Part shown: positions 3,703 to 7,674 of the stretch, in pieces
How positions within the stretch are numbered: the first letter of the stretch is position 1
Layout of the letters: the number at the start of each line of letters is the position of its first letter
Assembly (NCBI GenBank): GCA_048498835.1
Contig: JBEHXF010000041.1
Location: 1 to 17,227, forward strand
Length of the DNA: 17,227 nt
Direction: 5' to 3'
Source of the DNA: Chlamydiota bacterium
GTDB lineage: Bacteria; Chlamydiota; Chlamydiia; Chlamydiales; SM23-39
Translations under genes and position numbers: made by a program
Notes under the pieces: generated by a model
The model's input: the letters and a program-made list of their open reading frames with translations, nothing else
What the model was told of the DNA's origin: nothing
The model's database searches: none

Positions 3703-6700
3703 CTATGTTCCCTGCCGCGCGCGGGGGCCTCTACGTGTGCTAGCCATTAATTTGTTATGTGCTAGTCTTGCTTGATCAACGCTTTTCTTTGCTTGCTTTT
3801 TTACATCTGGATGGAAGATCTGCGAGATCATCTTTTCAATAGTCTGTTCAAAATCCTCGGGCCAATAACAATCTTGACAATCTAAATTTTTAGAGGCGTC
3901 GTATTTTGCATTGTCTCTTGTCTTTGTTAGGATATGTTTAATTCTTTTAAGTAGGCTTTCATCTAGGAACTGTTCTGCTTTTTTTCGTACAGAATTCGAT
4001 TTGATTTGTAATACGATTTCTCTAGCTTGTTCAAATTTTTTATTCGAAGCAAGGCTTTGTACTTTTTCTAATAGAGGTCTTTCAAGTTCTTCTCTTGCGA
4101 TGTCACGGATCGATTCCTGTTGGATTTTTGCAAGTTGTGTTTCTTTGTCAATGTTCTCATCCAAAATATATTTCGCCCACGCCTCTCCGATTGCGCGCTG
4201 AGCTTGTTTTTTGGTATTTGGATCTTGAATTTGATCAGCCAATCTTAGTACAAAGGCCTCAGAATCTTCTGGCCAGTAGCGCTGCCCATAGTTAGGAAAA
4301 GTAGGTATTTTGAATTTCGTGACCTCCAGGCTGTTTTTGATCGATTGTAAGAGTCTTTGATCATAAGCCAGTCTGGCAGCTGCGATCGTTTTTGTGGCCT
4401 CCTCTTTCATCGAAAGAGAGTGAATGTCCGCTAGGAGGTTTGTTGCCTCTTCGAAGCGCCCGTTTTGGGATAGAGAAGAAATTTCTCCATGCAACGCTTG
4501 GTCTATATATCCGCGAGCTTTTTCTTGGATTGCTGGATCTTTAATCTTCAAGAGAAAGGATTTGCCGTTATTGCCTAATTTATAATCCTTAATATGGGTT
4601 GCCCAGGCCTCATCCACTGCCAGTTGAGCTTTTATTTTTGTCTCTACATCATGAATTTGCTCGACTAGGCTTTGTACAGAGGCCTCAGAATCTTCTGGCC
4701 AGTAGCGCTGCCCATAATTAGGAGAATTAGAATTTTTGAATTTCGTGAGCTCCAGGCTGTTTTTGATCGATTGTAAGAGTCTTTGATCGTAAGCCAGTCT
4801 GGCAGCTGCGATCGTTTTTGTGGCCTCCTCTTTCATCGAAGGAGAGTGAATGTCCGCTAGGAGGTTTGTTGCCTCTTCGAAGCGCCGGTTTTGGGATAGA
4901 GAAGAAATTTCTCCATGCAGCGCTTGGTCTATATATCCGCGAGCTTTTTCTTGGATTGCTGGATCTTTAATCTTCAAGAGATAGGATTTGCCATTATTGC
5001 CGACTTTTTGATTCTTAACATAGTTTGCCCAGGCCTCATCCACTGCTTGTTGGGCTTTTATTTTTGTCTCTGGATCTTGAATTTGCTCGACTACGCTTTC
5101 TACAAAGGCTTCAGTATCTTCAGGCCAGTAGCGCTGTCCGTAGTTAGGAAAAGTAGGTATTTTGAATTTCGTGAGCTCCAAGCTGTTTTTGATCGATCGT
5201 AAGAGTCTTTGATCATTAGTCAATCTGGGATCTAAGAGTCTTTGATCATTAGTCAATCTGGGATCTAAGAGTCTTTGATCATTAGTCAATCTGGGATCAG
5301 CGATTGTTTTTGTGGCTTTTTCTTCCATCAAAGGAGAGTGAATGTCTGCGTCTGCTGTGAGTGAAGAAAAGACTTGCGTATCAATCGGAATCGTTCTCTC
5401 TAACATCCAACGTAAATAATCCAATCTAAAGAATTTAGATGCGCCGCCGATTCCACACTCTTTACCTACGATGGGAACACCTGCAGTTTGCCCCATCCAA
5501 TCTCCCTCCCTCCACGCCCCATCAGCAGGATCGTTATAAGAAAATTCATTTTCTTTCCATCCTTCTTGTAGGCGGATAAAACAGCCGTGGCGGCGGAAAG
5601 TATTGAGAGCTATTTCTCGTCCTTGGTAGCGATCTCGGTAATTTACTACTTTCACGACTCGATTTAGAAGAGAAGGGTCTTCCTCAAGAACTCTTGCAAA
5701 AGCCTCTTGTTCATGAAGAACATCTTGTGTTTTACAGGTCCCGAGCGTTCGACAATGGGGCGTTTGCGAATAGGCGTCATTTCTCTTCGCCCACAACTTT
5801 TCAATGAACTCACGGCTTTTTTGATCTTTGCGAACAATCAGAATGCCAGTATTGACTGAATGATCTCGATTGCCTGTTTTCCACTGCACAACGTCTCTAG
5901 CAATAATGATGCTAGCATCATCCCCGCTCCGGAGTAAATCAATCGCTTCGTAAGGGTTGATGTTCATGTTTGTAACTGGCATATCATCGTCCGCCAGGAC
6001 ATACCATTCCTCTTTTCCGGAAGAAGGTTCGTTGAGCCAGTTCTTTAAAATTGCCACTTTATTCCAGTAGGGGACGCAGTCAACTGAATGTTCGTCTGTC
6101 TTGCATTGGCCAAGGAGTAAATTTTCAGTAACAACTTTTCCAGTTAGCCCCCAGTATTGGGCATATTCTTGCTGATTATTGCTGACGAGCTCAGAGAGAC
6201 CATCTCGGTCTGGATTACCCGCAACATAGGTCGTTCCAAAAGTGATATGTCGTGTTTTTTTTGCCCTAAGGGCGGAGGCTTCCCGTTGTAAGCCCCGCTT
6301 AAAATAGACAAATGTTTTCTCTTCTAACGATGTTTCAATCCTTTTTTTTGAGTCCGTTTGATAAGCTCTATACCAAGTCTCATCTTCTGTAGAAATCGGC
6401 TGTTTTTCCCACAGTGCTCGTCGTATTGTTTCGCTTTTTTGATAGTTCTTGAGATCCGATGGACTTAATGACTTTATCGCGTTTTCTCTAGAAACCTCTG
6501 CAAGGCGTGGGAGCTTAGAAAAGATAAACTGCGACATTTCAGCTATGGAGTGATCAGACCCTAATTCTTTTAGAACGAGCGCTAACATTTTGGCTTGTCT
6601 GGCTAGAGGTTCGGCAAGACCCTCTGCTCGAACGGTGGAGGCGACTTGGTCTGGATCCAATTCATGGAGCCAATGGAGAGCTTCTGTCGTTAACCCTTCT

Positions 6701-7674
6701 TTGGCTCTGCCATGAGCGAATAGACCTGTCCAGGGTGTGTTTTTAAATGTTCCCGGCAAAATCATATCCATATCGATCGGAATCAGATGGGGGTTCCCCA
6801 GGACATCTTTCGATACGAGAAGATTGCCTGGGTGTCGGTCTTCAATAAATAAGAGAAGGTCTAGGAGTGCGATTCTTTGAAATTCTTCTAAGGGAACTTG
6901 ATCAAGAACGGGATTGCCTTCGAAGCGGTAGGCTTTTTCAGGATTTTTCTGAAAGTCAGGATGAAGTTCGACTAAGGGAGTGGTGTCTGAGATAAATTGT
7001 TGAACGAAGACTTTTTTTCTTTGTATACCTGCTGGATGACCAGCTTGTTGGGCTTCAACGCTAAAAAACTGGTCGCTCTCGAGTTCGTCGATGTAGCCAA
7101 GCGGTTGACATGCTCCTGATCCAAAATCTAATCTTCTTGCTGCAAATTGTCGATTTGCAGAACTTCCTGGGTAATAATTGGTTTGATATTGATCTTCTGC
7201 TGAAAGATCTACCCCTCTACGAGCAGCCCGTTTATTTTGGGGACCTAGCTCTCTCTCGTTTTCCGGTTTTACAATCGCTATTTTAGCCTGATCTGGATCA
7301 TAGGCGATGTAGACTCCGCTTGAGGCGATATAGACTCCGCTTGAAGCGTCTTCTATAGAAAGAAGGCGACCCTCCAGGGCAGCTTGTTGGACGCTATCCC
7401 TTAAATGATGGGCCTCATCAGGATGATAGGAACAGGAAGACAAGCCTGCGGCTTCTCCTGGAGCTGTAAATAACAATGATCCGATGAAAAGAGTCTTTAG
7501 CATTGTGCCAATCGGAGCAAACGAGAGATGACGGCGAAGATAAGGGATAGATGTAGCGGCGACGGCAAAACCGGTCAAGATAGGGCTACCGCTGCAAATG
7601 CCTGCAGAGGCTGCTAGCAAGCCGAGGCTCGTTCTGAAAGGATGATTTTTTAGAGTTTCTGTAATTGAAGTCAT
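3703..7674 (-). CDS. Large multidomain protein: hydrophobic N-terminus, PI4K type II-like kinase, GT34-like glycosyltransferase, C-terminal 142-aa helical repeats
   Basis: Kinase motifs ASSGVY, AIVKPENE, LLDLLLFIEDRHPGNLLV and LIPIDMD (about 6500-7350). GT34 motifs YWNKVAIL, WYVLADDDMPVTN (DxD), NTGILIVR and HEQEAF (about 5390-6250). Repeats carry YWPED. The 1323-aa ORF is uninterrupted. Confidence 0.85.
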   Translation of the reverse strand: MTSITETLKNHPFRTSLGLLAASAGICSGSPILTGFAVAATSIPYLRRHLSFAPIGTMLKTLFIGSLLFTAPGEAAGLSSCSYHPDEAHHLRDSVQQAALEGRLLSIEDASSGVYIASSGVYIAYDPDQAKIAIVKPENERELGPQNKRAARRGVDLSAEDQYQTNYYPGSSANRQFAARRLDFGSGACQPLGYIDELESDQFFSVEAQQAGHPAGIQRKKVFVQQFISDTTPLVELHPDFQKNPEKAYRFEGNPVLDQVPLEEFQRIALLDLLLFIEDRHPGNLLVSKDVLGNPHLIPIDMDMILPGTFKNTPWTGLFAHGRAKEGLTTEALHWLHELDPDQVASTVRAEGLAEPLARQAKMLALVLKELGSDHSIAEMSQFIFSKLPRLAEVSRENAIKSLSPSDLKNYQKSETIRRALWEKQPISTEDETWYRAYQTDSKKRIETSLEEKTFVYFKRGLQREASALRAKKTRHITFGTTYVAGNPDRDGLSELVSNNQQEYAQYWGLTGKVVTENLLLGQCKTDEHSVDCVPYWNKVAILKNWLNEPSSGKEEWYVLADDDMPVTNMNINPYEAIDLLRSGDDASIIIARDVVQWKTGNRDHSVNTGILIVRKDQKSREFIEKLWAKRNDAYSQTPHCRTLGTCKTQDVLHEQEAFARVLEEDPSLLNRVVKVVNYRDRYQGREIALNTFRRHGCFIRLQEGWKENEFSYNDPADGAWREGDWMGQTAGVPIVGKECGIGGASKFFRLDYLRWMLERTIPIDTQVFSSLTADADIHSPLMEEKATKTIADPRLTNDQRLLDPRLTNDQRLLDPRLTNDQRLLRSIKNSLELTKFKIPTFPNYGQRYWPEDTEAFVESVVEQIQDPETKIKAQQAVDEAWANYVKNQKVGNNGKSYLLKIKDPAIQEKARGYIDQALHGEISSLSQNRRFEEATNLLADIHSPSMKEEATKTIAAARLAYDQRLLQSIKNSLELTKFKNSNSPNYGQRYWPEDSEASVQSLVEQIHDVETKIKAQLAVDEAWATHIKDYKLGNNGKSFLLKIKDPAIQEKARGYIDQALHGEISSLSQNGRFEEATNLLADIHSLSMKEEATKTIAAARLAYDQRLLQSIKNSLEVTKFKIPTFPNYGQRYWPEDSEAFVLRLADQIQDPNTKKQAQRAIGEAWAKYILDENIDKETQLAKIQQESIRDIAREELERPLLEKVQSLASNKKFEQAREIVLQIKSNSVRKKAEQFLDESLLKRIKHILTKTRDNAKYDASKNLDCQDCYWPEDFEQTIEKMISQIFHPDVKKQAKKSVDQARLAHNKLMASTRRGPRARQGT
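4012..5349 (-). repeat. Intragenic 426-bp (142-aa) tandem repeat: three units plus a degenerate fourth toward about 3760
   Basis: Units begin (ADIHS) at 5349, 4857 and 4431. The landmark tgaatttcgt recurs at 4311, 4737 and 5163 (period 426). Unit 1 is 66 bp longer because of the nested 33-mer expansion. Confidence 0.93.
5200..5298. repeat. Perfect 33-bp tandem repeat x3, in frame, encoding DPRLTNDQRLL x3
   Basis: taagagtctttgatcattagtcaatctgggatc at 5200-5232, 5233-5265 and 5266-5298. Confidence 0.97.
7302..7343. repeat. 21-bp tandem duplication encoding ASSGVYI x2
   Basis: aggcgatgtagactccgcttg / aggcgatatagactccgcttg, with one mismatch. Confidence 0.92.

Follow-up and report, generated by a model that had tools for sequence, protein, structure and literature searches.

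A type II PI4-kinase-fold domain joined to a GT34-like glycosyltransferase in Chlamydiota: a candidate exported glycan-modifying module

The window studied here is the entire 17,227-nucleotide (nt) contig JBEHXF010000041.1 (C41) of a 1.97-Mb Chlamydiota genome of the SM23-39 lineage (GCA_048498835.1, referred to as G000). Its main feature is a minus-strand gene whose product carries a type II PI4-kinase-fold domain and a GT34-like glycosyltransferase (GT) domain between a putative N-terminal export segment and a C-terminal array of helical repeats (Table 1). The kinase belongs to a chlamydial clade in which the catalytic residues are retained and the phosphatidylinositol (PI) pocket is replaced, and we tentatively read the protein as an exported enzyme that would build and phosphorylate a glycan. 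A sequence-only reading of the window had described a single open reading frame (ORF) of 1323 amino acids (aa) here, and that holds: the frame has no internal stop and is real. That the ORF might be an assembly chimera, an objection raised with that reading, is very unlikely because the identical domain order recurs in independent assemblies, with 67-81% identity in kinase and GT. Neither domain is present in five genomes of the same genus, and GC content at third codon positions (GC3) is 0.38 in the ORF as against 0.47 +/- 0.08 across 884 long frames (14th percentile), which together lend mild support to lateral gain. The fusion has no paralogue in G000, where only one distant kinase is found, on contig C12 (L050, G000:C12:28141-28482). 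This second PI4K-II-like kinase has a canonical pocket and falls outside the clade.

The kinase domain scores 30.7 bits against Pfam PI3_PI4_kinase (PF00454; cut-off 27.1), and in a profile search of solved structures its top match is PI4KIIalpha (E 1.4e-9). Profiles were needed for the structure matches, as single-sequence searches were weak for the kinase (E 0.031) and gave no match among solved structures for the GT. An AlphaFold2 (AF2) model of the domain (predicted local distance difference test (pLDDT) 90.0) aligns with PI4KIIalpha (4pla; VIA, Z 22.3, root-mean-square deviation (rmsd) 3.9, 274 aligned), and Foldseek also places it in the PI4K-II fold (E 1.8e-10). The next folds are Hydra Fam20 (Z 12.7), CtkA (12.4) and MavQ (7.6, all VIA), with HipT-like protein kinases also following in the ranking, and ESM Atlas matches are unnamed Chlamydiota and eukaryote clusters with PF00454. 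On the model, the domain is of type II PI4-kinase fold, as had been assigned from sequence. Two qualifications apply to the kinase motifs listed with that assignment: the catalytic loop reads DRHPGN, and SSGxY occurs twice via a 21-nt tandem duplication. The duplication is absent from aligned homologues, and the duplicated loop is the lowest-confidence part of the model (pLDDT <50 at model residues 31-33).

Sections of PMC3974213 assign nucleotide binding in PI4KIIalpha to K152, Q261 and D346 and, from simulation and mutagenesis, a putative PI pocket to E157, Y159, R181, L184, T307, D308 and L349. PI4KIIalpha residues were mapped onto the window kinase by pairwise sequence alignment, in which R181 and L184 could not be placed. 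For four further positions we assume the PI4KIIalpha numbering E193, N313, N347 and G348. The equivalents of K152, Q261, D308, N313 and D346 are K136, Q225, D279, N284 and D301, and this catalytic set is retained in 30-32 of the 33 clade members (30-31 for the equivalents of K152, D308, N313 and D346) over a span of ~30-45% identity; the S137 equivalent is Val in the window kinase. The pocket residues E157, Y159, T307 and L349, in contrast, correspond to R141, L143, E278 and M304. The E157 position is Arg in 25/33 clade kinases and Glu in 0/33, whereas it is Glu in 23/32 kinases outside the clade. Glu or Gln stands at the T307 position in 30/33 clade kinases, Asp at the G348 position in 32/33 (Gly in 27/32 outside), Met, Ala or Ser at the L349 position in 26/33 (Leu, Phe or Tyr in 31/32 outside) and Gln at the E193 position, the helix Glu, in 32/33 (Glu in 30/32 outside). 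The other chlamydial PI4K-II-like kinases largely retain the canonical PI-pocket residues. The window kinase also lacks the CCPCC palmitoylation motif of animal enzymes, its only Cys being C81 and C189. Since the catalytic set is retained while PI-pocket residues are replaced, we read the clade kinase as an enzyme that is probably active on a new acceptor. According to sections of PMC3741686, plant enzymes of the type II PI4K fold are protein kinases without lipid kinase activity, and so the fold does not fix the substrate.

The AF2 model of the GT domain (pLDDT 93.5) is nearest to the PBCV-1 glycosyltransferase 2p6w (VIA, Z 18.8, rmsd 3.1, 203 aligned) and to XXT1 (VIA, Z 18.0, rmsd 3.8, 233 aligned), with WbbM (Z 13.6) and toxin-type effector GTs (Z 8-9; LtpM 9.0, SetA 8.7) lower. 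The GT family profile finds only XXT5, 2p6w, XXT1 and XXT2 among solved structures, and the top viral-protein folds matching the GT carry GT34 names. The WxK (aa 537-539), DDD (562-564), NTG (608-610) and EQxA (655-658) motifs named in the sequence-only reading are in place and the modelled fold agrees with its GT34 assignment, so that the domain is, on the model, GT34-like. The Pfam check proposed with it gave a divided answer: the window domain scores 16.8 against GT34 (PF05637), below the cut-off of 23, but 23/34 aligned family members match at E<=0.01, the fused homologue P0008 reaches 26.3 and more distant members up to 75 (P0079). Across 143 GT domains D562 is conserved in 97% and D564 in 100%, and the position of the DxD/H His is Gln in 96%, with His in more distant members. 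GT34 enzymes are described with a DxD/H metal site and type II membrane topology in sections of PMC12892413; a type II anchor is clear in some standalone GT homologues (L125, L007) and weak in the window protein. The GT profile found 133 representatives at E<=1e-30 and 1653 at E<=0.001, of which the best 150 were examined. In viral contigs there is one confirmed GT relative and no kinase relative.

Two further arrangements of this GT family were seen. GT34-like gene arrays (L118:5270-12729; G192:C103) include copies that match only piecewise or with stops, suggesting turnover. Tandem GT-GT fusions of the same family without a kinase, in which the first domain is divergent, were also found (L004, L005, L008, L009, L010, L018; P0015-P0022), in three genomes near murB and an exonuclease gene.

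A search for matching architecture elsewhere, another check proposed from sequence, found 16 distinct full-length fusions of kinase and GT34-like domain (13 kinase-first, 3 GT-first; a near-duplicate, P0005, and a fragment, P0134, are omitted); the architecture is uncommon. The two also adjoin as separate genes in environmental chlamydiae. In a kinase tree with 65 domains, drawn from 67 proteins (one gave two domains, and 3 short fragments were dropped), all GT-linked kinases fall in one clade of 33 (FastTree 0.992, Shimodaira-Hasegawa approximate likelihood ratio test (SH-aLRT) 98), with support of 0.736 and 73, respectively, without the basal L062. Fusion to a GT34-like domain is seen in 17 of these 33 domains (one a near-duplicate), and 8 lie beside such a gene; the remainder are fused to GT11 (1) or to the phosphodiester glycosidase NAGPA (2), are contig-edge fragments (2) or stand elsewhere in GT-bearing genomes (3). 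Outside the clade, 0/32 kinases are fused to a GT and 2 are fused to NAGPA. The outside kinases are a sample: matches were found in 89 genomes, and the best 30 of these supplied loci. The sample includes 5 probably eukaryotic proteins, and few of its neighbours were examined.

The same association is seen between genomes. Within the family, single-sequence searches found the GT in 8/8 genomes with a close kinase (E<=1e-25), compared with 17/103 overall; by genus the figures are 3/3 and 8/53 (p 0.002, a value overstated by kinship). In the phylum sample the GT is present in 11/12 genomes with a clade kinase and in 26/400 overall (one genome unscored); 8 of these 11 supplied profile sequences, and 3 did not. 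A GT without a clade kinase occurs in 15/26 genomes. The dependence is one-way: the GT is often alone, but the clade kinase is almost never without a GT.

Among 10 relative loci, record labels are Chlamydiales, Chlamydiae, Rhabdochlamydiaceae or Simkaniaceae in six, Verrucomicrobia in one and "uncultured" Chlamydiae or bacterium in the rest. A metagenome scan gave two loci, one previously found and one weak, and cluster look-ups named 2/20 proteins, both chlamydial. Word-index protein searches scored 8000 candidates each and pattern scans were narrow, and the Chlamydiota-only range holds within those. PADLOC and a plasmid search gave no match, and NCBIfam none above cut-off. No description of the fusion or of the kinase clade was found in the literature searched, which took in few subscription journals and no supplements, nor is the fusion described in the accessible sections of PMC9758233, PMC12419801, PMC11488536 and PMC7826918; the earlier remark that no described protein combining both domains was known stands to this extent.

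Partner enzymes were identified by Pfam scans of 80 module and neighbour ORFs. A GT34-like domain is fused to GT11 in P0125, and at one locus GT, GT, kinase and NAGPA genes follow in this order with abutting or overlapping stop and start codons. The GTs and NAGPA of that locus share an N-terminal hydrophobic membrane module (E 1e-46 to 1e-59; kinase 1e-5). Kinase-NAGPA fusions were found in 4 genomes of 4 families (Table 1), while NAGPA itself occurs in 89/401 genomes, and an HPRT-like motif was matched in 3/5 NAGPA domains inspected. A tyrosine phosphatase gene adjoins one locus. Neighbours vary between loci, and the glycan or envelope genes among the 80 ORFs are one GT92, one methyltransferase and single MurB, MurJ and LpxD genes; no ABC exporter or polysaccharide cluster was found among them, and no ABC-transporter O-antigen locus among the window neighbours. 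A separate, unannotated protein-kinase-like family was seen in family relatives (L185, L186, L187, L188, L189, L190, L191, L193; alignment A5). It has a glycine-rich loop, a Lys, an Asp...HN loop and DxDC, is preceded by the shared N-terminal module and is followed by a C-terminal hydrophobic segment. Pfam gave nothing above cut-off for it, and no solved structure matched.

The hydrophobic N-terminal segments noted in the sequence-only reading are present, although only moderate (best 19-residue Kyte-Doolittle mean 1.47), and they resemble signal-type segments more closely than they do clear membrane spans. With a start at M58, or as an internal signal, the second would resemble a signal peptide. 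Ahead of the first domain, 17/30 clade proteins and 1/22 outside have a hydrophobic segment (19-residue mean >=1.4), 5'-truncated frames and fragments being dropped and 4 probable eukaryotic proteins scoring 0/4. A crude signal-peptide rule selects 4/29 clade and 0/26 outside proteins, with the window protein passing from both M1 and M58, and short Sec-type signal-like N-termini stand, by eye, directly before the enzyme in L112 (2 genes), L111 (2) and L124 (2). All ten Cys of the window protein beyond residue 27 can be paired. In the GT, C647 is accompanied by C641 or C652 in 140/143 domains, the other 3 lacking all of them; the kinase Cys pair is complete in 12 clade kinases and single in 1 of 31; and repeats retain both Cys or lose both. 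Such paired cysteines would point to disulfides and an oxidising compartment; export of the window copy is putative.

An oxidising compartment would need a supply of ATP and nucleoside diphosphate (NDP)-sugars, for which ATP/ADP translocase genes and vacuole-lumen glycogen synthesis may be cited. Chlamydiae import ATP, and G000 encodes 4 full-length ATP/ADP translocase-family genes, its own nucleotide-sugar pathways, DsbB, two secretins and the type III secretion system (T3SS) export protein SctV. With the labels of the relatives, the translocases, SctV, secretins and DsbB suggest that the bacterium is an environmental chlamydia. In Chlamydia trachomatis, glycogen is made in the vacuole lumen from uridine diphosphate (UDP)-glucose with a secreted enzyme (sections of PMC4829429), and delivery into the chlamydial inclusion lumen by Sec and type II secretion (T2S) is described in parts of PMC6717882.

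The 142-aa helical repeats reported from sequence are borne out by a 426-nt period (2.3 copies at 91%) and by hairpin units in the sequence. Four WP-bearing units lie at aa 849, 991, 1133 and 1270, and the last copy retains a CxxC (C1266/C1269) of which the first three lack both Cys. Repeats are present in 6/16 fusions, in ~1 to 4 copies, and missing from 10/16; they were matched in 4/103 family genomes, each also with a clade kinase. ESM Atlas gave no usable match, and pentatricopeptide (PPR) and tetratricopeptide (TPR) repeat matches were weak and under cut-off. In genome G095 a kinase part at the start of C41 and a repeat part at the end of C16 (L161, L200) are probably one orthologous gene.

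A sigma-70-like promoter match upstream of the ORF would leave the mRNA without a leader or give M58 a 5' leader; the promoter scan is no better than chance (8 sites, against 7.1 +/- 3.0 in shuffled sequence), and the terminator scan is also at chance level. Elsewhere in the window are an autotransporter with passenger-associated repeats, which starts at the contig edge and is probably 5'-cut, and a stress-gene block (Dps/ferritin, MscS with BON, DUF389, PfpI, Fpg-like glycosylase, short-chain dehydrogenase/reductase (SDR) and CsbD) without a DNA-level match in five same-genus genomes except for one small element. A Rieske oxygenase with a KshA-type C-terminal domain (3-ketosteroid 9-alpha-hydroxylase-like) may act on host sterols. 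A hairpin element of ~90 nt has 15 matches, on both strands, in the same-genus genome G016 and a partial second copy on contig C47 of G000; it is possibly a miniature mobile or repetitive extragenic palindromic (REP)-like element. Finally, a 53-nt stretch recurs unchanged at the end of contig C13 and may reflect either a join in the assembly or a short repeat.

Table 1. Features of the fusion gene, of related kinase-NAGPA loci and of the rest of the window (positions refer to the window unless a locus is named)
Feature	Position	Strand	Details
Whole ORF	3703..7674	-	1323 aa, no internal stop; export segment, kinase, helical linker, GT34-like transferase, helical repeats
Promoter match, sigma-70-like, 10/12	7682..7710	-	ends 7 nt upstream of ATG
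N-terminal region, aa 1-80	7435..7674	-	two moderately hydrophobic stretches, aa 15-43 and 50-73
Type II PI4-kinase-fold domain	6523..7419	-	aa 86-384; K136, E140, Q225, D279, N284, D301 retained
Kinase clade signature and Cys pair	6523..7419	-	R141, Q176, E278, D303, M304; C81/C189
21-nt tandem duplication, 2.2 copies	7302..7348	-	doubles glycine-rich loop SSGxY motif
Helical C-terminal extension and linker	6259..6522	-	aa 385-472; DSSP of model; conserved in several fusions, shortened in others
GT-A fold, GT34-like glycosyltransferase	5380..6258	-	aa ~473-765; DxD at D562-D564; Q729 at canonical GT34 His; six Cys (524, 533, 641, 647, 698, 740)
33-nt tandem repeat, 3.1 copies	5195..5298	-	11-aa unit; start of repeat region
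142-aa helical repeat, ~3.5 copies	3739..5307	-	built of ~37-40-aa hairpin units, ~three per repeat
PI4K-II-like kinase + NAGPA fusions	L062:340-3537; L064:373-2397; L070:412-2016; L124:11697-14003
Autotransporter	20-2860
Stress-gene block	8014-16978
Hairpin element	12855-12950
Rieske oxygenase	13204-14265
53 nt identical to C13 end	16991-17043

The reading that we favour, with a probability of roughly 0.45, is that of a module which leaves the bacterial cytoplasm and, beyond it, both assembles a glycan or glycolipid head group and adds phosphate to it. We infer the compartment, the activities, the substrate and the order of steps as follows. The N-terminal signal or membrane segment would carry the enzyme from the bacterial cytoplasm to an oxidising compartment, for which the periplasm or cell surface, the vacuole lumen and the host endoplasmic reticulum (ER) or Golgi lumen are candidates, and there the cysteines would form disulfides. 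The GT34-like domain would transfer a sugar from an NDP-sugar, and the kinase, as a PI4K-II descendant with a rebuilt acceptor pocket, would use ATP to phosphorylate this same glycan or glycolipid head group on a hydroxyl. The phosphate may prime, cap or tag the glycan, with the repeats serving as an optional binding arm. One of two functions offered by the sequence-only reading, a glycan-synthesising and phospho-capping enzyme with the repeats as a WbdD-like ruler, comes nearer in spirit, given the GT11 and NAGPA fusions; its ruler part is not supported because the repeats are short hairpin units, vary from ~1 to 4 copies and occur in only 6/16 fusions, and an optional binding arm fits better.

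Several observations weigh against this reading. The tree of the kinases matches that of the GTs only to a moderate degree (Mantel rho 0.40, p 0.0002, n=21; 0.28, p 0.07, n=16). The helix Glu to Gln change in 32/33 clade kinases could reduce activity. The window N-terminus is weakly hydrophobic, and 13/30 clade proteins fall under the hydropathy threshold. The Cys pair is missing in 18/31 clade kinases, the coupling of C524 and C533 in the GT is perfect but reflects just one change on the tree, and there is no marked overall bias to even Cys numbers (83 even, 60 odd). With regard to the partners, NAGPA has no match in G000, in two of the four kinase-NAGPA fusions the kinase lies outside the clade and has a canonical pocket (perhaps an independent and older pairing), and a third (L124) is degenerate, its catalytic residues lost. 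The shared N-terminal module also heads an unrelated kinase-like family, and thus domain shuffling among secreted proteins could yield some fusions without a shared substrate. In several homologues (P0006, P0011, L114, L034, P0059) the module carries ankyrin repeats and, once, a DnaJ domain, as cytosolic effectors typically do, in some cases directly after the GT.

A more specific form of the exported glycan module is doubtful. In it, a eukaryote-type PI4-kinase would have been rebuilt into a secreted glycan kinase of a Golgi-like phosphoglycan pathway, together with the GT34-like enzyme, GT11 and a NAGPA-type uncovering enzyme. Acting in the vacuole lumen or the host secretory pathway, this pathway would write phosphate tags (for example mannose-6-phosphate-like tags or phosphodiester caps) that alter how glycoconjugates of symbiont or host are sorted or recognised. 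If so, bacteria would have their own counterpart to the phosphorylation of glycans in the Golgi, one that arose from a different kinase family, a PI4-kinase fold would have switched substrate class via a handful of pocket residues, and lumenal glycan editing would be a kind of host manipulation new for environmental chlamydiae in the literature searched. A PF00454 match in an intracellular bacterium is not to be taken as a phosphoinositide effector by default.

The other function offered from sequence was such an effector, injected to the cytosolic face of the vacuole or of host membranes, where a phosphoinositide made by the kinase would anchor or activate the GT, which would glycosylate host proteins or lipids. 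It would resemble Legionella LepB, MavQ or AnkK combined with SetA or LtpM, which are linked to phosphatidylinositol 3-phosphate. PI4KIIalpha is the nearest solved fold by a wide margin, SctV is encoded in the genome and the ankyrin and DnaJ fusions in homologues fit. As to the bilobed hydrophobic domain or type III signal of a T3SS effector or inclusion membrane protein (Inc), the window protein shows two weak hydrophobic stretches. Bacterial PI-kinase effectors are established, as set out in parts of PMC9758233. However, the PI-pocket residues are replaced clade-wide without any CCPCC-type motif, homologues have short Sec-type signals, the cysteines are paired and the GT is GT34-like, far from the toxin-type effector GTs, so that the proposal is weakened and looks unlikely.

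Slightly less likely is an exported protein kinase, Fam20C-like or plant PI4Kgamma-like, acting on secreted or surface proteins that the GT also decorates, with the repeats recruiting the substrate. The lack of lipid activity in the plant enzymes, the place of Fam20, CtkA and HipT-like protein kinases next in the fold ranking, the resemblance of the helical repeats to a binding solenoid and the adjoining tyrosine phosphatase gene are all in keeping with it. It leaves glycan-enzyme partners of three families (GT34-like, GT11 and NAGPA) unexplained, and the repeats that would recruit the substrate are missing from most fusions. It is improbable that the protein works in the cytoplasm or at the inner membrane on the surface polysaccharide of the bacterium itself, with the GT extending the chain, the kinase capping it and the repeats measuring it as in WbdD/WbdA. 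The nucleotide-sugar pathways of G000 and the third place of WbbM among GT folds would suit it, but neighbours vary by locus without an ABC exporter or polysaccharide cluster among the 80 ORFs scanned, signal peptides and paired cysteines fit poorly, and the repeats are optional and hairpin-built. Least probable is that the kinase domain acts as a pseudokinase or regulates the GT by binding ATP, or that unrelated secreted domains were shuffled together incidentally, since despite the helix Gln, the degenerate copies in L124 and one L111 domain, the many genomes with the GT alone and a module common to another kinase family, the Lys, catalytic Asp, Asn and metal-binding Asp are retained in 30-31 of 33 across ~30-45% identity and the clade kinase almost never occurs without a GT.

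Compared with known type II PI4-kinases (human PI4KIIalpha/beta, plant PI4Kgamma/UbDKgamma), the chlamydial kinases are alike in fold and in the ATP-binding and catalytic Lys, Gln, Asp, Asn and Asp, but they form a bacterial clade with a replaced PI pocket, no palmitoylation motif, signal-like N-termini in homologues and fusions to glycan enzymes. Among GT34 enzymes (XXT1, Mnn10, Gma12, PBCV-1), which include the nearest folds, the DxD, WxK, NTG and xQ motifs are held in common and some standalone homologues share the type II topology, whereas the chlamydial GT has Gln for the DxD/H His, extra Cys-rich inserts and, in the window, a domain under the Pfam cut-off. We take the PBCV-1 structure 2p6w to be domain 1 of A064R and of GT34 class. 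The bacterial PI-kinase effectors (LepB, AnkK/LegA5, MavQ, OpiA, Risk1) and effector GTs (SetA, LtpM) are likewise eukaryote-like enzymes of intracellular bacteria and likely secreted, but MavQ, LtpM and SetA rank far under the top matches, LepB is not among the folds listed and no kinase-GT34 fusion is known among these effectors in the literature searched. Enzymes of the inclusion lumen offer precedents, GlgA with host UDP-glucose for a nucleotide-sugar transferase in that lumen (PMC4829429, in part) and the Sec/T2S substrates CPAF and Ptr for delivery to it (PMC6717882, in part), although these make storage glucan or are proteases and no kinase-GT pair is described among them.

A kinase and a glycosyltransferase act on one glycan in the WbdD/WbdA system of O-antigen chain-length control; there the kinase is of a different fold class, and the chlamydial loci have optional repeats and no ABC-transporter O-antigen locus. 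Closest in working logic are the sugar kinases of the eukaryotic secretory lumen, where Fam20B phosphorylates xylose at the expense of ATP (sections of PMC7948968) and POMK is likewise described as phosphorylating a sugar. The same logic, of a kinase working with transferases, is proposed here, and in the fold ranking Fam20 comes second to PI4KII (Z 12.7 as against 22.3). The chlamydial kinase lies outside both families, is bacterial and is fused to its transferase; the likeness proposed is functional only. The parts are known folds, and their working logic has eukaryotic precedent.

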